DNA from: Candidatus Dojkabacteria bacterium
GTDB taxonomy: Bacteria > Patescibacteriota > Dojkabacteria > SC72 > JAFGCJ01
Direction of reading: 5' to 3'
Length of the DNA stretch: 62,923 nt
Assembly (NCBI GenBank): GCA_016932785.1
Contig: JAFGCJ010000007.1
Span: forward strand, 1-62,923
Below the pieces are notes generated by a model. That model did not search any database, was not told the origin of the DNA, and saw only the letters and a list, made by a program, of their open reading frames with translations. How positions within the stretch are numbered: position 1 is the stretch's first letter; every line of letters begins with the position of its first letter. Both the position numbers and the translations under genes were made by a program. Shown here piece by piece: positions 2,375-55,056 of this stretch.

Positions 2375-4891
2375 ATGAGTAATCCGTTCAGGCTACTAAC
2401 AGAAAATGCAAAATCTGCCCTGAAAATCTCCTCTGTGGTTGCAGATAGGATGGGTGCCAGGGATATTATGCCTCTACACCTATTTATATCATTGCTTCTT
2501 GTTAAAGAGGGTATTGCATCTCGTGTCCTTTCAGCTATGAAGATCGATATCGATCAGACGTTGGAGTCGTTTGCTAAAGGTGTCGACTTATCTGATATTA
2601 GGGATACAAGATTAACTAAAGGCATTAAGGATATATCTTCAGACATGAAGGCACTAATAAGTCGTGCATATAGCATAGCAAGACAGAACAGGCATGTGTA
2701 TGTTGGTACGGAGCATCTTCTTTTGGCGATACTTGATGATGATAGTGCTGGATTCGTTCGTGATTTAGAAACTTCGGGGTTGAAGGTTAATGATATAAAA
2801 AAGAATATACTGAATTTTACAACTTACCCTGAGGGTGTTCTTTCGAGATCTGGAAGGAAACGGGTTACTGGAAAGCCTACGGCGCTTGAAGTTTTTGGCA
2901 GAGATTTAACAGAAATTGCTAGAAGAGGTCTTCTTGATCCGATCGTTGGGCGTGAAGATGAAATCAATCAGATAATTAAGGTTCTTTCGAGGAGGAGGAA
3001 GAACAATGCTGTTGTTGTTGGAGAGGCCGGAGTAGGAAAAACAGCGCTTGTGGAGGGGTTGGCTCAAAGAATTGTTTCGGGCAATGTTCCAGAATCTCTA
3101 AGGGATGCAAAGATAGTATCTCTTGATGTGACGGGTATTGTTGCCGGGAGCAAGATGAGAGGGGATATGGAAGAAAAAATGATGGCGGTAATAAATGAAG
3201 TTTCCAGTAGCCCAAATATTATTTTGTTCATAGATGAGATTCATACAATATTGGGAGTTGGGGGCGCTGTTGGTGGAGGGCTTGATTTGGCGGGGGTACT
3301 GAAACCTGCTCTTGTCCACGGCAATTTTAGGTGTATTGGTGCTACTACTGCTGCAGATTACAGCAGGTATTTTGAGGATGATGCTGCGCTTAGCAGGAGA
3401 TTTCAAAGGATTTTAGTTGAGGAGCCGTCCGTTGAAGAAGCTGTCGAAATATTAAAGAGGATAAGACCGCTGCTTGAGTCGCATCATAATGTTGTTATAA
3501 CGGATGAGGCTGTTGAAACGGCTGTGAGGTTATCAGATCAGTATGTCAGCGATAGATATTTACCTGATAAGGCCATTGATCTTATGGATGAAGCTGCTGC
3601 TACAAGAAGGCTTCAGCTTGAGGGTAAGTATAACGAGTTAGGTGATGTTCGGTCTAAATATAGAGAAATTATTAAAGCGAAAGAGGGGGCTATAAGAAAG
3701 GGTGATATCGATTCGGCTTCTGACCTTAGAAAACAAGAGGAGGTTGTGAAGGCCGAGATGACTGATTTGAAAAAGAAGAGAGGCGAAGGTAAAAAGTCTA
3801 AGGAATACCATGTTAATGTAGGCATAATTAGAGAAATTGTTTCTAAATGGACGGGAATACCACTGACCACATTAGGAGCAGAGGAATCCTCATCACTTAT
3901 AAATCTGGAGGATGTCCTTGAGTCCAAAGTCATTGGACAACAGGAGGCTGTTGAGAAGGTTGCCGCTGCCATTAAGCGTGCGAGAACAGGTGTCACAAGC
4001 GGGGAGAGGCCATGGGCATCGTTCCTGTTCCTTGGTCCTACTGGTGTTGGTAAAACAGAGTTGGCTAAGGTATTAACAAAGACTCTTTTTGGTGAGGAGG
4101 ATAGACTTATTCAGATTGATATGAGTGAAATGATGGAGATGCATAGTGTTTCCAAGCTTATCGGTTCTCCTCCTGGATATGTAGGGTATAGAGAGGGGGG
4201 GCAGCTTACTGAGCAGGTAAGGAAACAGCCGCACTCTGTTATTCTTTTTGATGAGATTGAAAAAGCTCACATTGACGTTCTTAATATCTTGCTTCAGATC
4301 CTTGAGTATGGTCATCTAACAGATGGAAAAGGCCGCAGAGTGAATTTTAAAAATACCGTTATAATTCTCACTTCAAACATTGGTGCTGAAGAGATTGGTA
4401 GAGACAAAGTTCTTGGTTTCAGGGCTGAAGAGGACGATGAGGAAAGAAGCGACGAAAATATCGAGGGAGCCTATGAAGGGATGAAGGAAACGCTTCTTAA
4501 GAAGTTAAGAGACGATATTAGACCTGAGCTTCTTAACCGTCTCGACGATATTGTTATATTTCGATCTCTTACAAGAAAGGATGCAAAGAATATTGTAGAT
4601 CTTCTTCTTGATGAGCTAAATGAGCGTTTGGAAGAAGAAGGAGTTGAGGTTGTCCTTGATGCGTCGGCTGTAGATTTCATTGTTGAAAAAGGATTTAGTG
4701 AGGACTATGGAGCGCGCCCTCTCAGACGTACTATTCAGGATTATGTTGAAACTCCAATTGCTTCGTATCTTCTGAGATACGGTGGGGGATTGGTTTGGAA
4801 GGGTAAGGGAAAGAAATCGAGCAGGAAAAAGAAGGTAAATATCAAAAAATCTAAGAAAGCTGAGAAGCTAATCGTTTCTAAAGGGAAATAA
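2375..4891 (+). CDS. clpC: ATP-dependent Clp protease ATP-binding subunit, ClpC-like (two AAA+ modules)
   Basis: Clp_N repeats are present. Walker A motifs are GEAGVGKT and GPTGVGKT. An LGF ClpP-docking-type loop is present. The 838-aa length and short middle domain fit ClpC rather than ClpB. Confidence 0.9.
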   Translation: MSNPFRLLTENAKSALKISSVVADRMGARDIMPLHLFISLLLVKEGIASRVLSAMKIDIDQTLESFAKGVDLSDIRDTRLTKGIKDISSDMKALISRAYSIARQNRHVYVGTEHLLLAILDDDSAGFVRDLETSGLKVNDIKKNILNFTTYPEGVLSRSGRKRVTGKPTALEVFGRDLTEIARRGLLDPIVGREDEINQIIKVLSRRRKNNAVVVGEAGVGKTALVEGLAQRIVSGNVPESLRDAKIVSLDVTGIVAGSKMRGDMEEKMMAVINEVSSSPNIILFIDEIHTILGVGGAVGGGLDLAGVLKPALVHGNFRCIGATTAADYSRYFEDDAALSRRFQRILVEEPSVEEAVEILKRIRPLLESHHNVVITDEAVETAVRLSDQYVSDRYLPDKAIDLMDEAAATRRLQLEGKYNELGDVRSKYREIIKAKEGAIRKGDIDSASDLRKQEEVVKAEMTDLKKKRGEGKKSKEYHVNVGIIREIVSKWTGIPLTTLGAEESSSLINLEDVLESKVIGQQEAVEKVAAAIKRARTGVTSGERPWASFLFLGPTGVGKTELAKVLTKTLFGEEDRLIQIDMSEMMEMHSVSKLIGSPPGYVGYREGGQLTEQVRKQPHSVILFDEIEKAHIDVLNILLQILEYGHLTDGKGRRVNFKNTVIILTSNIGAEEIGRDKVLGFRAEEDDEERSDENIEGAYEGMKETLLKKLRDDIRPELLNRLDDIVIFRSLTRKDAKNIVDLLLDELNERLEEEGVEVVLDASAVDFIVEKGFSEDYGARPLRRTIQDYVETPIASYLLRYGGGLVWKGKGKKSSRKKKVNIKKSKKAEKLIVSKGK

Positions 4892-19352: not shown

Positions 19353-19441
19353 CCCTTGGGACTGGGTTTTCCTTGTGGTACCAGTGTTTTTTGTTTTTTC
19401 ATAGACAAAATTTGAGCCCATATAATCTAGTCCTTGGCACT
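19351..19441. repeat. REP doublet (AGCCCTTGGGACT at 19351, AGTCCTTGGCACT at 19429)
   Basis: Two copies of the 13-nt palindromic family, 78 nt apart, immediately upstream of the RAYT gene. The first copy overlaps the stop codon of the M23 peptidase gene. Confidence 0.75.
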
Positions 19442-39668: not shown

Positions 39669-39741
39669 TACTTCCGGTTTAATCATCCTGTGTAGATGTT
39701 TTCTGGGTGTTTTTTGTGTGATAAAATCGCACAGTGAAGGT

Positions 39742-39814
39742 GCACCCGTAGCTCAAAGGATAGAGCAACTGCCTTCTAAGCAGTAGGCTGCAGGTTCGAG
39801 TCCTGCCGGGTGCG
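39742..39814 (+). tRNA. tRNA-Arg (anticodon TCT), copy 1
   Basis: Hand-folded 73-nt cloverleaf with anticodon loop CTTCTAA. Confidence 0.85.
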
Positions 39815-39866
39815 TGTTTGTTTTTTGACCCGTGAGGTTCTGAACAATCAGTAATAAGTGTGGCTA

Positions 39867-39940
39867 GCACCTGTAGCTCAACCGGATAGAGCATTGGTTT
39901 GCGGAACCAAAGGTTGCAGGTTCGATTCCTGCCAGGTGCG
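39867..39940 (+). tRNA. tRNA-Arg (anticodon GCG)
   Basis: Hand-folded 74-nt cloverleaf with anticodon loop TTGCGGA. The acceptor and T arms are nearly identical to the TCT copies. Confidence 0.8.
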
Positions 39941-39943
39941 CGT

Positions 39944-40035
39944 AGTCCTTAGGACTGGGAAAGTCTTATTTTCAAGGGGTTTTCTTGTTGTGGAGGTTGT
40001 GTTTTTGAGTCCTATAATATTCAGTCCCCGGGGTG
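39944..40035. repeat. REP doublet (AGTCCTTAGGACT at 39944, degenerate AGTCCCCGGGGTG at 40023)
   Basis: The copies are 79 nt apart. The doublet starts 3 nt after tRNA-Arg(GCG). An inner CCTATA element precedes the second copy. Confidence 0.65.
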
Positions 40036-40094
40036 GAAACAGGGTATAATTTGACTTGTTAGCCCGTGGATATGGTACAAATGTGGAGGTTCTG

Positions 40095-40186
40095 AGTACC
40101 AGGGACTAAGTGTTATAGGTTGAAAAAATGGTATACTAGAGACAGAGAAAGACTGAATACTTAGGTCTCGTTGAGTCCTAAGGACT
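40095..40186. repeat. REP doublet (AGTACCAGGGACT at 40095, AGTCCTAAGGACT at 40174)
   Basis: The copies are 79 nt apart. TATAGG follows the first copy. The second copy ends 6 nt before tRNA-Arg(TCG). Confidence 0.7.
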
Positions 40187-40192
40187 TACCGA

Positions 40193-40266
40193 GCACCCGT
40201 AGCTCAACTGGATAGAGCACCGGTCTTCGGAACCGGGGGTTAGGGGTTCGAATCCTCTCGGGTGCG
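40193..40266 (+). tRNA. tRNA-Arg (anticodon TCG)
   Basis: Hand-folded 74-nt cloverleaf with anticodon loop CTTCGGA. Confidence 0.8.
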
Positions 40267-44371: not shown

Positions 44372-44400
44372 TTGTACCTGAGCCTTTGTTATGGTATAAT
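44372..44400 (+). promoter_or_regulatory. Promoter of the T-box leader (TTGTAC-17 nt-TATAAT)
   Basis: TTGTAC at 44372-44377, a 17-nt spacer, then TATAAT at 44395-44400. Confidence 0.5.
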
Positions 44401-44406
44401 CTCAAA

Positions 44407-44722
44407 ATAGCTCGTGAGAAATATTAGTTTTGTAGTTTTGGCGTAAGCAAGCTGGGGTAGCTGTAAGCCCGGTGCCATAATCAAAATGAACGCGTCTCAC
44501 ACATAGCTGACCGAAGAAAGCCATGTGCAAGTAGGTCATCGAATGCTCCAAGGTTGTTCTTAGAGAAGGCTGCGGATAATTCGTGAGTTTGCAAGCTTGT
44601 ATGGGCTCTTCTTAACGGAAGGGCTTTTTTATAGAAGCTTGAAGACGGGTGGTACCGCGGGAGAATGAAGAAAGCTCTCGTCCTGTTGTCAGTGTATCTG
44701 GCAGTAGGACGGGAGCTTTTTT
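44407..44722 (+). promoter_or_regulatory. T-box riboswitch leader (candidate Arg specifier CGC)
   Basis: T-box core GGGTGGTACCGCG at 44647-44659. Terminator AGCTCTCGTCCT / AGGACGGGAGCT followed by T6. The T-box 3' part CGGGAG duplicates the terminator 3' arm, which is the antiterminator logic. In Stem I, GTGAGA pairs with TCTCAC, with a 3'-side loop GAA-CGC-G at 44488-44494. Confidence 0.7.
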
Positions 44723-44813
44723 AGTCCTTAGGACTGGTATAAGGCTTTAGTTGTAAGGTTTTTGTTAGAAAAAAATATATTTTTTAATCCTATATCCGTT
44801 AGTCCCTGGGACT
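44723..44813. repeat. REP doublet (AGTCCTTAGGACT at 44723, AGTCCCTGGGACT at 44801)
   Basis: It begins directly after the T-box terminator U-tract. It has inner TATAAGG ... CCTATA symmetry. The second copy ends 8 nt before tRNA-Arg. Confidence 0.75.
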
Positions 44814-44821
44814 TAGTTCAA

Positions 44822-44894
44822 GCACCTGTAGCTCAAAGGATAGAGCAACTGCCTTCTAAGCAGTAGGCTGCAGGTTCGAGTCCTGCCAGGTGCG
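44822..44894 (+). tRNA. tRNA-Arg (anticodon TCT), copy 2
   Basis: 73-nt cloverleaf that differs from copy 1 only by a compensated acceptor-stem base pair (positions 6 and 67). Confidence 0.85.
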
Positions 44895-44986
44895 AGTGCC
44901 AAGGACTGGATAATATAGGACTACTTTGAACTAGCATATACGGAGGCTTTGCTCTTTAAAAAAGGTTCGTTTGAGTCCTTGGGACT
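44895..44986. repeat. REP doublet (AGTGCCAAGGACT at 44895, AGTCCTTGGGACT at 44974)
   Basis: It starts at the nucleotide after the tRNA discriminator base. The copies are 79 nt apart, and their central triplets CAA and TTG are in inverted orientation. Confidence 0.75.
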
Positions 44987-45119
44987 TCACAGTATATCCA
45001 TAGTTTACTGTGGACATACTGTGGGGTCTTTGCTCAGAGGAAGTTCTGGCATGAAATTCCGGGCCCGTACAACTTTATGGTTTGTACGTATGCCTTCCCC
45101 ACGGAAGGAGGCTGGATCA

Positions 45120-45146
45120 ATGCGGAATCGCGGAGATCGCCTGTAG
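45120..45146 (+). CDS. Candidate Arg-rich mini-ORF, MRNRGDRL (8 aa), in the argS 5' region
   Basis: AAGGAGG at 45105-45111 lies 8 nt upstream of the ATG. Three of the eight codons are Arg (CGG, CGC, CGC). The SD is half-sequestered in a CCTTCC/GGAAGG hairpin. Function is speculative. Confidence 0.3.
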   Translation: MRNRGDRL

Positions 45147-45189
45147 GGCTAGAGCCCTAGGATTGCTTTTATAGCAGTCCGCACAAAAA

Positions 45190-45240
45190 GGTAGGGAGAG
45201 TGATGTGACCTGACGGTCAGCTTCGAGCACTCTCCCTACC
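45190..45240 (+). other. Strong hairpin in the argS 5' region
   Basis: GGTAGGGAGAGTG pairs with CACTCTCCCTACC (13 bp), with an inner TGACC/GGTCA stem. No canonical U-tract follows. Confidence 0.6.
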
Positions 45241-45282
45241 TCCCGATTATAATTTAGGCTAATTTTTTAGTAAAATGGGAAT

Positions 45283-47895
45283 ATGAAATTTAAACTCACG
45301 TCGGAATTTATTAAAAAGTATCCTGATGCAATAGAAATGATCGTTATTGCACGAGGGGTTCATAATGAGATAGCTTCGAAATGGATAAGTGACTTAACCC
45401 AGAAGGTTTCAGATGAGGTTAGAGCTGAGGGAGCTGGCATACTGAAGGAGCAAAGATTTGCTATGTGGGAGCAGGTGTTTAGTGATATTGCCAAAGAGGC
45501 CGAATTTAAGACTGGGGATTTTCACTCTTCTCACGTGGCTCTTACAAAGAGGGTGTTGAACGGAAAGGATATTCCGAATATTAATCCTGTTGTTAATTTC
45601 TATAATATGTATTCTCTTAAATATGGTGTCCCTTTTGGGGGGGAGGATCTTTCGACGGTTTATGGAGATATGGAGCTTACTATTACTAAAGGTGGAGAGC
45701 CGTATCATGAGATTGGTAGTAGTAAGGTCAGTAATTTGGGGCCAAACGAGGTTGCGTGGATTGATGATCATTCAGTGACTTGCAGAATGTGGAATTGGAG
45801 ACAATGTGACAGGACAAAGGTAATGAAGAATACCAGGGATATATATTTTATAATAGATGGATTTAGGGGAATTAAAGGTCTGTCTTATCAAGATATTGCT
45901 GGAGATTTTACCAAGGATTTGGAAGAAAAGTTTGGTGCTAAGGTTGACGTTTATGAGCTGAATAAAGAAAACCTGGAGTGTGATGTTGACTATGATACTA
46001 AGGAAGTTGGTGATCTCGATGTAGAGGCTGATCTATTAAGAAGTGCCAATCAATACGAGAAAAAATCAACCCGGGAGAGGAAGGGATTTATGAAAAGAAA
46101 GGTTACATCAATGGGTTTGGAGGATGATGATAATGTTGTTCCGCGCTTGAATAATTTCGTTAAAAATTCGCTTGGAAAGAAATTACCTCCAAAAATATCC
46201 GATTCTTTGGAAGTTACTGTTTCTCAAAATCCGGACTTTGGTGATGTGTCCAGTCCGGTTGCTTTAAGACTTGCAAAGGATCTGAAGCAGGCTCCAAAAG
46301 AGATTGCTGGAGATATTGTTGGTGAGCTCAATAGTGACCCCGAAGTTCAGAAGGTATTTCAGGATATATCTGTGGCTCCAAACGGGTTTATTAACTTCAA
46401 ACTGTCTGAATTTTTTCTGTTGTCCGAATTGTCAAAAGCATTGAAGCAAGCGGATAGTTATGGATCATCTGATATTGGTAAGGGAAGAGTAATTCTGGTA
46501 GAAGGTCCCTCGATTAATCCCAACGCGGCAGCTCATGCTGGCCACCTCATGAATATTTTTATCTGTAGGACATTAGTAAGGCTTTTCAAAAAAGGTGGTT
46601 TTCAGCCGGAGATAGATAATCTAATTAACGATAAGGGGATCAAGATTTGTATGGCAATGTGGGGGATCAAGAATCTTGCCGAGAAGAAGACTCCTGAGGA
46701 GGCCAAAATGAAGTCGGATCAGTTTGTTGGTAAGTACTATGTTCTTGCGAAGAAAGCGTATAAAGAGGATCCAGAGGCTAAGGCAGAGATACAACAGTTG
46801 CTGAGAGACTGGGAAACAGGGAAGCCGGATGTGCTTGAGCTTTGGAGGAAGGTTATTGACTGGGCGTTTGCCGGGCACAGAAAGACATTGGAAAGATTGG
46901 GGGAAAAGGTTGGGCATCTGTGGCTGGAAAGCGAGGTTTATAAGAGTGGGAAGGAGATTATTCAGAAATTCCTTGGGAGAAGTATTATAGAGAAGCTTTC
47001 TGATGGAGCTGTTGTGGGAAGGCTGGAAAAGAAATATGGTTTGCCCGATGTTGTTCTGTTAAGGTCAGATGGTACTGGTTTGTATCATACTCAGGATATA
47101 GCTCTCACATTAAAGAAGATTGAAAAATTTAATCCCTGGAGAGCTATTTGGGTAGTTGGAAATGAGCAGATCCTTCATTTTCAGCAGCTTTTTGCGCTTC
47201 TTGATGAACTGGGTTTGCTTCCGCTTGATAGGGTTTATCATTATGCGTATGGGTTGGTTGTTGATAAAAATGGAGAAAAAATAGGCAAGGATGCAAACGA
47301 TGCAACTGCTGATACATTGCTTGATATTATGCATAAAGAAGCCCTAAAAGTCATTGATGAGAGAAAAATAAAGGTAGATCTTGAGGACAAGGATGCTGTA
47401 GCTGAGGCGGTAGGAATTGGTGCGCTGAGGTACGGTTTTCTCTCTACTGATCCATATAAACCAATAACCTTTGATCCTGATGAGGCTTTGTCTTTTACTG
47501 GAAAAAGCGGACCTTACATAATGTACGCTTACTCAAGGGGTAGGAATGTTCTAAGGAATGCCATAGAGGGCGATGTCGACAACTATAAGGTGAGTGATAA
47601 GATTAAAGACAAATCCCATAGTACCGACATGACAGAGATCGATAGAGATCTGATCTTTTCACTTCTTCAGTATCCTGAAGTTATTGTTTCTGCGATTAAT
47701 AATTATGCACCTAATGTATTGGCCGAATATCTTTATAGTGTAGCCAGTAAATTCAGCTATTTTTATGAAAAAGAGACTGTTTCAGGAGCAGATGGTCCTG
47801 AGAAAGAGCTAAGAATTGCAATTACATTTCTTACTACAAGAGTTATAAAGGATGGTCTTGGACTTTTGGGTATTAAGGTTCTTGAAAAGATGTAG
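45283..47895 (+). CDS. argS: Arginine--tRNA ligase with an N-terminal B3/B4 (PheRS-beta-like tRNA-binding) domain fusion
   Basis: Residues ~300-870 comprise the ArgRS Add-1 domain, a HIGH variant (AAHAGHL) and the anticodon-binding DALR region. Residues ~1-240 resemble the B3/4 domain (NINPVVNFYNMYSLKYGVPFGGEDL). Confidence 0.85.
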   Translation: MKFKLTSEFIKKYPDAIEMIVIARGVHNEIASKWISDLTQKVSDEVRAEGAGILKEQRFAMWEQVFSDIAKEAEFKTGDFHSSHVALTKRVLNGKDIPNINPVVNFYNMYSLKYGVPFGGEDLSTVYGDMELTITKGGEPYHEIGSSKVSNLGPNEVAWIDDHSVTCRMWNWRQCDRTKVMKNTRDIYFIIDGFRGIKGLSYQDIAGDFTKDLEEKFGAKVDVYELNKENLECDVDYDTKEVGDLDVEADLLRSANQYEKKSTRERKGFMKRKVTSMGLEDDDNVVPRLNNFVKNSLGKKLPPKISDSLEVTVSQNPDFGDVSSPVALRLAKDLKQAPKEIAGDIVGELNSDPEVQKVFQDISVAPNGFINFKLSEFFLLSELSKALKQADSYGSSDIGKGRVILVEGPSINPNAAAHAGHLMNIFICRTLVRLFKKGGFQPEIDNLINDKGIKICMAMWGIKNLAEKKTPEEAKMKSDQFVGKYYVLAKKAYKEDPEAKAEIQQLLRDWETGKPDVLELWRKVIDWAFAGHRKTLERLGEKVGHLWLESEVYKSGKEIIQKFLGRSIIEKLSDGAVVGRLEKKYGLPDVVLLRSDGTGLYHTQDIALTLKKIEKFNPWRAIWVVGNEQILHFQQLFALLDELGLLPLDRVYHYAYGLVVDKNGEKIGKDANDATADTLLDIMHKEALKVIDERKIKVDLEDKDAVAEAVGIGALRYGFLSTDPYKPITFDPDEALSFTGKSGPYIMYAYSRGRNVLRNAIEGDVDNYKVSDKIKDKSHSTDMTEIDRDLIFSLLQYPEVIVSAINNYAPNVLAEYLYSVASKFSYFYEKETVSGADGPEKELRIAITFLTTRVIKDGLGLLGIKVLEKM

Positions 47896-54738: not shown

Positions 54739-54779
54739 TGGAAATATGATAAAATCGGGTGTTTATTATTTGATGAAAT

Positions 54780-54853
54780 GCACCCGTAGCTCAATCGGAT
54801 AGAGCAACGCACTCCTAACGCGTAGGTTGCAGGTTCGATTCCTGCCGGGTGCG
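54780..54853 (+). tRNA. tRNA-Arg (anticodon CCT)
   Basis: Hand-folded 74-nt cloverleaf with anticodon loop CTCCTAA. There is one A:C mismatch at the base of the anticodon stem. Confidence 0.75.
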
Positions 54854-54944
54854 AGTCCCAGGGACTGATTACTATGGGACCTGATTTAGGCATTCTTTTT
54901 ATTAGTAATCTTTTTATATCAGGCCTAAACCAGTCCCAAGGCCT
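54854..54944. repeat. REP doublet (AGTCCCAGGGACT at 54854, AGTCCCAAGGCCT at 54932)
   Basis: It fills the spacer between two tRNA-Arg genes. It starts at the base after the discriminator and ends 4 nt before the next tRNA. Confidence 0.7.
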
Positions 54945-54948
54945 TCTT

Positions 54949-55022
54949 GCATCCATAGCTCAATTGGATAGAGCGTCGGTTTCCGGAACCGAAGGTTGGG
55001 GGTTCGAATCCTCTTGGATGCA
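54949..55022 (+). tRNA. tRNA-Arg (anticodon CCG)
   Basis: Hand-folded 74-nt cloverleaf with anticodon loop TTCCGGA. Confidence 0.8.
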
Positions 55023-55056
55023 CTTTTCTAAGTAAGAAATTGTTGGTGATGAGAGC

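Follow-up and report, generated by a model that had tools for sequence, protein, structure and literature searches.

The locus analyzed in this study lies on contig JAFGCJ010000007.1 of Candidatus Dojkabacteria, whose whole length of 62,923 nt is referred to below as the window; coordinates are window positions unless another contig is named. On its plus strand, a T-box leader with an intrinsic terminator is followed by a tRNA-Arg(UCU) gene enclosed by two doublets of a repetitive extragenic palindrome (REP), by a structured spacer, and by argS, encoding arginyl-tRNA synthetase (ArgRS) (Table 1). T-boxes are described as regulators of protein-coding genes, namely those for aminoacyl-tRNA synthetases, biosynthesis, and transport. 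The leader considered here is a genuine arginine T-box, belonging to the T-box family by its anatomy, and it probably serves as the arginine-specific, transcription-attenuating switch of a small operon formed by tRNA-Arg(UCU) and the argS gene. The order of features downstream of the terminator (REP doublet, tRNA-Arg(TCT), second REP doublet, argS) had been given in a preliminary description of this DNA and is borne out, the argS start lying 561 nt after the T-run. The same description had remarked that the first downstream gene is a tRNA; this holds, and the architecture recurs in the lineage rather than being a one-off.

Table 1. Features of the T-box, tRNA-Arg(UCU), and argS locus, in window positions
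Feature	Position	Strand	Composition	Basis
Putative sigma-70-type promoter	44372..44400	+	TTGTAC 44372-44377, 17 nt, extended -10 TGgTATAAT 44392-44400 (TATAAT 44395-44400)	custom loose scan
T-box leader	44402..44688	+	Stem I, Stem II, Stem III with large insertion, T-box sequence, antiterminator	RF00230 match
Specifier loop, 3' side	44488..44494	+	GAA 44488-44490 (S-turn), CGC 44491-44493 (Arg specifier), G 44494 (conserved purine)	model alignment
T-box sequence and antiterminator 5' strand	44647..44663	+	GGGUGGUACCGCG 44647-44659; 7-nt bulge UGGUACC 44650-44656; 5' strand GCGGGAG 44657-44663	sequence, model, fold
Intrinsic terminator	44668..44722	+	25-bp helix, 5-nt loop, G+C-rich core 44672-44718, T6 44717-44722	fold and terminator scan
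REP doublet 1	44723..44813	+	13-nt palindromes AGTCCTTAGGACT (44723) and AGTCCCTGGGACT (44801) around 65 A+T-rich nt	sequence
tRNA-Arg(UCU), second copy	44822..44894	+	G73; no encoded CCA	ARAGORN; Rfam tRNA, 75.3 bits
REP doublet 2	44895..44986	+	AGTGCCAAGGACT (44895, abuts the discriminator base) and AGTCCTTGGGACT (44974)	sequence; fold -27.6 kcal/mol, z -2.6
Structured spacer before argS	44987..45282	+	296 nt	fold z = -7.9
Shine-Dalgarno (SD) sequence	45107-45111	+	in the pre-argS spacer	
Mini-ORF (open reading frame)	45120-45146	+	ATG CGG AAT CGC GGA GAT CGC CTG TAG (MRNRGDRL*), in the pre-argS spacer	
Large hairpin	45189-45241	+	in the pre-argS spacer	
argS	45283..47895	+	870-aa fusion of an N-terminal B3/4 domain and a complete ArgRS	Pfam B3_4, Arg_tRNA_synt_N, tRNA-synt_1d, DALR_1

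Anatomy and arginine specificity of the leader

In a local permissive search, the Rfam T-box model RF00230 aligns with 44402-44688 on the plus strand over its full length (model positions 1-219) at 67.4 bits and an E-value of 3.6e-14, or 7.4e-15 when scaled to the 1.06-Mb genome. The T-box call of the preliminary description is thus recovered as a significant, full-length match, and its T-box core at 44647-44659 (GGGTGGTACCGCG) is confirmed both by the letters at this position and by the model alignment.

The base helix of Stem I is formed by GUGAGA (44414-44419) and UCUCAC (44495-44500) in the model alignment; the same pairing had been proposed earlier with a first coordinate of 44413, which was off by one. 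Above this helix, the model places CGC and the following purine at the canonical specifier position, as had been suggested from a GAA-CGC-G loop, and the codon found there is one for arginine. CGA at 44540-44542, noted earlier as another candidate specifier, was rejected, since the model assigns it to Stem II. In the distal platform of Stem I (AG bulge and distal loop), AGCAA and GGGGUAGCUGUAAGCCC are aligned with high posterior probability, the conserved letters being only partly kept. CGC is decoded by the anticodon GCG, and the matching tRNA-Arg(GCG) is indeed encoded in the window, as the preliminary description had pointed out, at 39867-39941 on the plus strand, 4.8 kb upstream of the leader.

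The strongest support for arginine specificity is comparative. The comparison with argS leaders of related genomes, which had been proposed earlier, demonstrates that the orthologous leaders carry arginine codons in the same columns. The G005 leader (L003) has the specifier loop GAA-CGC-A and the bulge UGGU, in the same geometry as in the window, and that of G012 (L009) has GAA-CGA-G and UGGC. The specifier is AGA-G in the argS leaders of G062, G063, G064, and G047 and CGC-G in G043, all five with a UGGC bulge. The G016 specifier, probably AGG-A, has a low posterior probability, and that of L043 is not unambiguously readable; neither was used as evidence.

The UGGU of the T-box bulge is expected to pair with the NCCA 3' end of a tRNA. 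Around the bulge UGGUACC, the antiterminator consists of the helices 44644-44649/44682-44687 and 44657-44663/44675-44681 (fold of 44640-44688, -13.3 kcal/mol). The terminator fold of 44640-44724 reaches -41.6 kcal/mol (z = -6.9), and the terminator scan reports at the same site 20 pairs, 10 of them G-C, and a T-run. Because the 5' arm of the terminator (44675-44687) is the 3' strand of the antiterminator, the two structures are mutually exclusive, in agreement with the switch proposed in the preliminary description; the six-T run given there also stands, while the terminator helix is longer than the 12 bp it had assigned. In the G005 ortholog, the expression platform is near-identical and differs from that of the window by compensatory changes, despite only 55% identity of the ArgRS proteins. 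As a separate observation, a terminator-like hairpin with a T-run (GGGCTCTTCTTAACGGAAGGGCTT TTTTAT, 44603-44626) lies within the Stem III insertion, upstream of the T-box sequence, where it could cause premature termination or pausing.

The site TTGTAC-17-TGgTATAAT just upstream of Stem I is a plausible leader promoter. Its -10 element is perfect and carries the TG extension, the -35 element matches at three of six positions, and it is one of 25 such sites on the plus strand of the 63-kb window. It was found with a loose scan, which was used since a stricter standard scan reported no plus-strand site and missed this putative promoter too, owing to its poor -35 match.

Cognate tRNA genes between T-boxes and synthetase genes

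The order-wide comparison comprised 70 T-box loci (30 loci and 40 regions) and the window, 71 in total. In 13 of them, the window included, one or more same-strand cognate tRNA genes separate the leader from the first long ORF. Of these, seven are tyrosine loci, in which a T-box with the specifier UAC is followed by tRNA-Tyr and an ORF (genomes G046, G057, G119, G115, G043, and G005, and contig C3 of the genome of the window, 315299-315608). The other six are arginine loci, in which a T-box with an arginine codon is followed by one or several tRNA-Arg genes and argS (G062, G063, G064, G043, G047, and the window). The specifier matches the family of the embedded tRNA in all cases, that is, UAC with tRNA-Tyr, and AGA or CGC with tRNA-Arg; in the window, both downstream genes, tRNA-Arg(UCU) and ArgRS, correspond to the amino acid that the specifier encodes. 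In the other T-box classes of the order (AspRS-, LysRS-, TrpRS-, IleRS-like, etc.), the leader runs directly into a coding sequence. Outside the order, 26 sampled T-box loci of the phylum yielded one further case, the T-box, tRNA-Tyr, and tyrosyl-tRNA synthetase (TyrRS) locus of G253, from another Patescibacteria family. Cognate tRNA genes within T-box-controlled units are therefore present at at least 13 other loci, 12 in the order and one outside it.

Where the ORFs were scanned against Pfam and NCBIfam, they encode TyrRS in G043 and G253 and ArgRS in G062 and G063. The ORF of the tyrosine locus in the genome of the window encodes a tRNA_edit-TyrRS fusion (NF006330 equivalog, 404 bits). All embedded tRNA-Tyr genes pass the tRNA model (41-64 bits), and their discriminator base A matches the UGGU of the leaders. 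The embedded tRNA-Arg(UCU) of the window was counted as intact because of its score of 75.3 bits and because it differs from the first copy (39742-39814) only by a compensatory C-G to T-A change of one acceptor pair.

The spacing at five compact tyrosine loci is informative: the tRNA begins 5-11 nt past the U-run and is followed by the ORF after a further 20-25 nt. A promoter of its own would not fit into so short a gap, and transcription of the tRNA is possible only by read-through of the terminator. In G043 (95% complete), the T-box-embedded tRNA-Tyr is the sole tRNA-Tyr detected by BLAST. Switches of this layout, whether specific for arginine or for tyrosine, thus probably control production of tRNAs of the amino acid family that they sense, and at several loci of the very tRNA that they sense. 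For the window, with 99 nt between the T-run and the tRNA, such control is only likely.

The downstream coding sequence, called plain argS in the preliminary description, is an ArgRS gene, and its product is by Pfam a B3/4-ArgRS fusion; full-length orthologs of the fusion are found in families f1, f2, and f4 and in part of f3 and f5. Location of tRNA-Arg genes directly upstream of argS is a pattern seen across the order. For instance, the genes are arranged as TCT-GCG-TCG-argS in G003, G002, G001, and L041, with 28-133 nt from the last tRNA to argS, and as GCG-TCG-argS in G008. In G005 and G012, a T-box follows the last tRNA and precedes argS; in G016 and L043, it stands immediately upstream of argS. 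The G005 T-box is 98 nt from the orthologous argS, and all three tRNA genes of that locus precede it. Since orthologous T-boxes directly precede argS in these four cases, orthology identifies the T-box of the window as the argS leader. Two ORFs of the window stand between this leader and the cluster of three tRNAs (39741-40266), and the stretch from the leader to argS holds an additional UCU copy. Among relatives from the protein database, L039 (59% ArgRS identity) is the closest full-length one; it has tRNA-Arg(UCU), about 435 nt, and argS, its contig beginning inside the tRNA. Searches of genomes and of metagenome contigs for closer relatives with the same layout gave four and three loci, respectively, none of them close. 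The argS gene closely follows a coding sequence and has no leader in L038, L040, and L042, and it follows tRNA-Arg without a T-box in L041 and L044.

Two side observations concern the synthetases of these units. In four genomes of family f3 (G057/L048, G119/L049, G115/L052, and G046/L047), the tyrosine T-box precedes a divergent tRNA-Tyr (41-53 bits) and an ORF of 425-430 aa that belongs to no Pfam or NCBIfam family and has only a sub-threshold match to the S4/TyrRS C-terminal domain. A canonical tRNA-Tyr is present on another contig in G046, G057, and G115, and none was found in G119; tblastn detected no TyrRS of the G043 type in these four genomes, which are 73-83% complete. The ORF could encode a very divergent TyrRS or be part of a second tRNA/enzyme pair. 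The TyrRS of the genome of the window (C3:313058-314683, minus strand; L115:1559-3184) is a 541-aa fusion with an N-terminal tRNA_edit domain of the YbaK/ProX type; hence both synthetases encoded behind T-box-tRNA units in this genome, B3/4-ArgRS and tRNA_edit-TyrRS, carry an N-terminal domain of the editing type.

Palindromes and spacers around tRNA-Arg(UCU)

REP doublet 1 immediately adjoins the T-run and is separated from the tRNA by 8 nt; it can fold into a single long hairpin (-22.9 kcal/mol) with no U-run after it. A role of the doublets as terminators was rejected because neither is followed by a U-run, and a mobile element with a conserved interior was rejected because the four doublets of the genome share only the 13-nt palindromes, their interiors being different. 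Thirteen of the 17 genomic copies of the palindrome AGTSCYNRGGACT are located in the 63-kb window (among others at 19429, 26851, 34097, 39944, 44723, and 54854), and two each on contigs C4 and C5, which corresponds to 2.1 per 10 kb in the window and about zero elsewhere. It often abuts the ends of tRNAs or occurs in pairs 78-79 nt apart with unrelated interiors.

The window contains six tRNA-Arg genes (UCU twice, GCG, UCG, CCU, and CCG; 39741-40266, 44822-44894, and 54779-55023) and no ACG gene. All have G73, except the CCG gene, which has A73, and CCA is encoded in none of them.

A permissive cmscan of 44723-45282 (E up to 10) returned only chance-level matches and neither a second T-box nor another known RNA family; compared with the rest of the genome, only the tRNA and the palindromes of this region recur elsewhere. 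The pre-argS spacer has an SD sequence, a mini-ORF, and a hairpin in a layout similar to that of L039 (about 300-345) and of the tyrosine leader in the same genome (C3, about 315000-315040, minus strand; L115, about 3505-3545). The mini-ORF of the tyrosine spacer reads GTG TAT CGC GGT GAT TAC AAC TAG (MYRGDYN*), and that of L039 reads GTG AAG AAA GAC GAT CGC CGC TAA. Both mini-ORFs of the genome of the window carry CGCGGNGAT, have a cognate codon (Arg or Tyr) as codon 2 and again after GAT, and are immediately followed by a hairpin. Among nine genomic sites of CGCGGNGAT, only these two are preceded by an SD sequence and a start codon. Such SD-led mini-ORFs with cognate codons may represent a second, ribosome-based sensor of charged tRNA.

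The hairpin at 45189-45241 is kept between two genera (L039, about 355-425), with the compensatory arms GGTAGGGAGAGTG/CACTCTCCCTACC and GGATGAGAGAGTAG/CTACTCTCTCATCC, and a conserved loop block CTTCG(N)GC beside its 3' arm is reminiscent of the anticodon loop of tRNA-Arg(UCG). More speculatively, it could be an ArgRS operator or a tRNA mimic.

Proposed operation of the switch and its meaning

We infer a promoter, co-transcription across the 99-nt and 388-nt spacers of this genome, processing of the tRNA, and a regulatory outcome. Transcription would start at the promoter at 44372-44400, and Stem I would offer the CGC codon to the anticodon of tRNA-Arg(GCG). The free NCCA end of the uncharged tRNA would pair with the UGGU bulge, U and G73 forming a wobble pair, and stabilize the antiterminator. 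The polymerase would then pass the terminator and REP doublet 1 and transcribe tRNA-Arg(UCU), doublet 2, the structured spacer, and argS. Release of the tRNA from the read-through transcript would rely on RNase P and a 3' processing nuclease, followed by addition of CCA, which the gene does not encode. With charged tRNA, the 25-bp terminator would form and transcription would stop at the T-run. The expected outcome is coupled synthesis of tRNA-Arg and ArgRS when charging falls. At the arginine loci of family f3 and at the tyrosine loci, the sensed isoacceptor is itself encoded inside the controlled unit, and the ligand would be a product of its own switch. In the window, tRNA-Arg(UCU) and argS are likely to share a transcript with the leader: promoter and terminator scans from the T-run to argS on the plus strand revealed no promoter comparable to that of the leader and no convincing terminator.

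A number of observations weigh against an intact arginine switch acting on both genes. The isoacceptor predicted to be sensed (GCG) differs from the one encoded downstream (UCU). Moreover, the discriminator of tRNA-Arg(GCG) is G73, which the UGGU of the leader meets by a G-U wobble only, as also in G005; this refines the earlier T-box reading. As all tRNA-Arg genes of the window except CCG have G73, UGGC pairs with them canonically and the UGGU of the window by wobble, while the UGGC/G73 pairings of relatives and the UGGU/A73 pairings of the tyrosine loci are canonical. The T-box database TBDB accepts wobble at the discriminator-pairing position of UGGN (PMC7778990). The leader departs from the T-box family in two respects. 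No kink-turn (K-turn, GA motif) can be recognized at the base of Stem I, where the UGA...GA columns of the model are aligned with CUCGU...ACA and a non-canonical pair, and the score of 67.4 bits is below the Rfam gathering threshold of 93 bits, so that a scan in gathering mode reports no T-box. Together with the large Stem III insertion and the terminator-like hairpin within it, these departures could be taken as erosion of a decaying T-box, or of one that is not specific for arginine. We regard such a relic as very improbable. The gathering score is a curation cut-off and not a biological feature, and it is uninformative for the Dojkabacteria, because all eight T-box matches of this genome and nearly all those of the order are below it, yet precede matching synthetase genes (in the census of 120 genomes of the order, Candidatus Dojkabacteria, T-boxes were found in 100, with a match above the cut-off in only four). 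Further, the specifier, the bulge, the antiterminator, and the perfect terminator helix are intact, and the platform is shared with the distant G005 ortholog.

The remaining points concern the origin of the two downstream transcripts. The gap between the T-run and the tRNA is long, includes the A+T-rich REP doublet 1, and contains at 44751 a weak promoter-like site, TTGTAA-19-TATATT; unlike the gaps at the five compact tyrosine loci, it is long enough for an independent tRNA promoter. At five arginine loci of family f3 (L056, L057, L075, L077, and L078), the gap between the terminator and the tRNA is 21-22 nt and holds the strictly conserved TTTTTTGTTATATAATA. This block is strict across three genera, 21-22 nt before tRNA-Arg(UCU), the next 10 nt being variable, and it may be an internal -10 element overlapping the terminator, which would provide the tRNA-argS unit with a constitutive promoter in addition to the inducible one; the tRNAs of these relatives may thus have a second, constitutive promoter. 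It is accordingly conceivable, and in our estimate a less likely but serious alternative, that the T-box is the argS leader while tRNA-Arg(UCU) is made mainly from its own promoter inside REP doublet 1, read-through only adding to it, and that the tRNA entered the leader-CDS spacer as a passenger, through duplication or REP-associated rearrangement. The TATAAT conserved at the f3 arginine loci agrees with this, as do the palindromes that tightly flank the tRNA on both sides and the arrangement in G005, with the T-box directly before argS and three tRNAs upstream, next to which the tRNA of the window looks secondarily inserted. However, the candidate promoter in the gap has a 19-nt spacing and is at the chance level of the loose scan (about 8.7 such matches per kb), the compact tyrosine loci demonstrate sole T-box control of tRNAs in the lineage, and tRNA(UCU), spacer, and argS occur in the same order in L039, so that the layout is kept across genera. 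The T-box could also be decoupled from argS, read-through yielding the tRNA only or nothing useful, with argS transcribed from a promoter near 45248 and controlled by the mini-ORF and the hairpin of the spacer. The perfect TATAAT at 45248 and the unusually strong structure of the 296-nt spacer fit this scheme, as do the SD sequence, the mini-ORF with three arginine codons, and the conserved hairpin, which are common to L039, and the analogous mini-ORF with tyrosine codons in the tyrosine leader; independently of it, the structured spacer may add a second control on argS. We consider the decoupling improbable, since the TATAAT has no -35 element and a 19-nt spacing, again at chance rate, no terminator with a U-run follows the tRNA, the orthologous T-box stands directly before argS in G005, G012, G016, and L043, and selection that keeps a T-box intact, with compensatory changes, implies a target.

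An operon of tRNA-Arg(UCU) and argS under the arginine T-box combines features of several known systems. The specifier loop of the Bacillus subtilis glyQS leader is GAA-GGC-A, and the leader of the window has the same arrangement of GAA, codon, and purine as the transcriptional T-boxes of Firmicutes (RF00230; B. subtilis tyrS, glyQS). They are also alike in the Stem II GAA...AGUA motif, Stem III, the T-box sequence, the 7-nt UGGN bulge, the competing terminator, and the cognate synthetase gene. In contrast to them, the terminator is followed by a tRNA gene before any coding sequence, the synthetase gene does not begin until 561 nt downstream, Rfam scores the leader below its cut-off, the K-turn is unrecognizable, the UGGU-G73 pair is a wobble, and the host belongs to the Candidate Phyla Radiation (CPR). 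Arginine-specific T-boxes of Clostridia were reportedly identified by comparative genomics by Vitreschak and colleagues in 2008; they are likewise reported to have an arginine specifier codon with a preference for a C ending and to precede arginine-related genes. The leader of the window differs in occurring in another phylum and in having a target unit of tRNA-Arg gene(s) and an ArgRS with the B3/4 domain. The thrU-tyrU-glyT-thrT-tufB operon of Escherichia coli is a mixed tRNA-protein operon and has in common with the proposed unit that tRNAs are co-transcribed with a downstream translation-related gene and excised by RNase P and 3' nucleases. Mixed operons of the E. coli type are not known to be headed by a riboswitch that senses charging of a tRNA of the same family. 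Full-text literature searches and the description of TBDB gave no report of a T-box upstream of tRNA genes or of a tRNA as the first regulated product, an absence that is not proven, as most subscription journals were outside their reach. Arginine T-boxes and mixed tRNA-protein operons are each known; the combination for which these searches gave no precedent is a unit with a T-box at its head and a tRNA of the cognate family as its first product.

For genome annotation, these observations imply that pipelines pairing a T-box with the next coding sequence will mis-measure the length of the leader or miss the tRNA, and that the 93-bit cut-off of Rfam overlooks almost all T-boxes of Dojkabacteria. 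The compact tyrosine loci (U-run, 5-11 nt, tRNA, 20-25 nt, ORF) are ready templates for a direct test in vitro. With intermediate confidence, we extend the scheme to the Dojkabacteria and at least one other family of Patescibacteria, where T-boxes would govern units made of tRNA genes of the sensed family and the cognate synthetase, several of them embedding the isoacceptor named by the specifier (AGA with tRNA-Arg(UCU), UAC with tRNA-Tyr). The ligand of the riboswitch would then be a product of its own operon; the uncharged tRNA would induce itself, in a positive loop, and its charging enzyme, in a negative one, and tRNA and synthetase would be kept in proportion in genomes with very few regulators. 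If the read-through transcripts do carry the tRNAs, the ligand class of the switch is one of its outputs, and therefore its dynamics change, an autocatalytic arm joining the usual homeostatic one. If true, this would be a simple way to co-regulate the supply of tRNA and synthetase in the reduced genomes of CPR bacteria.

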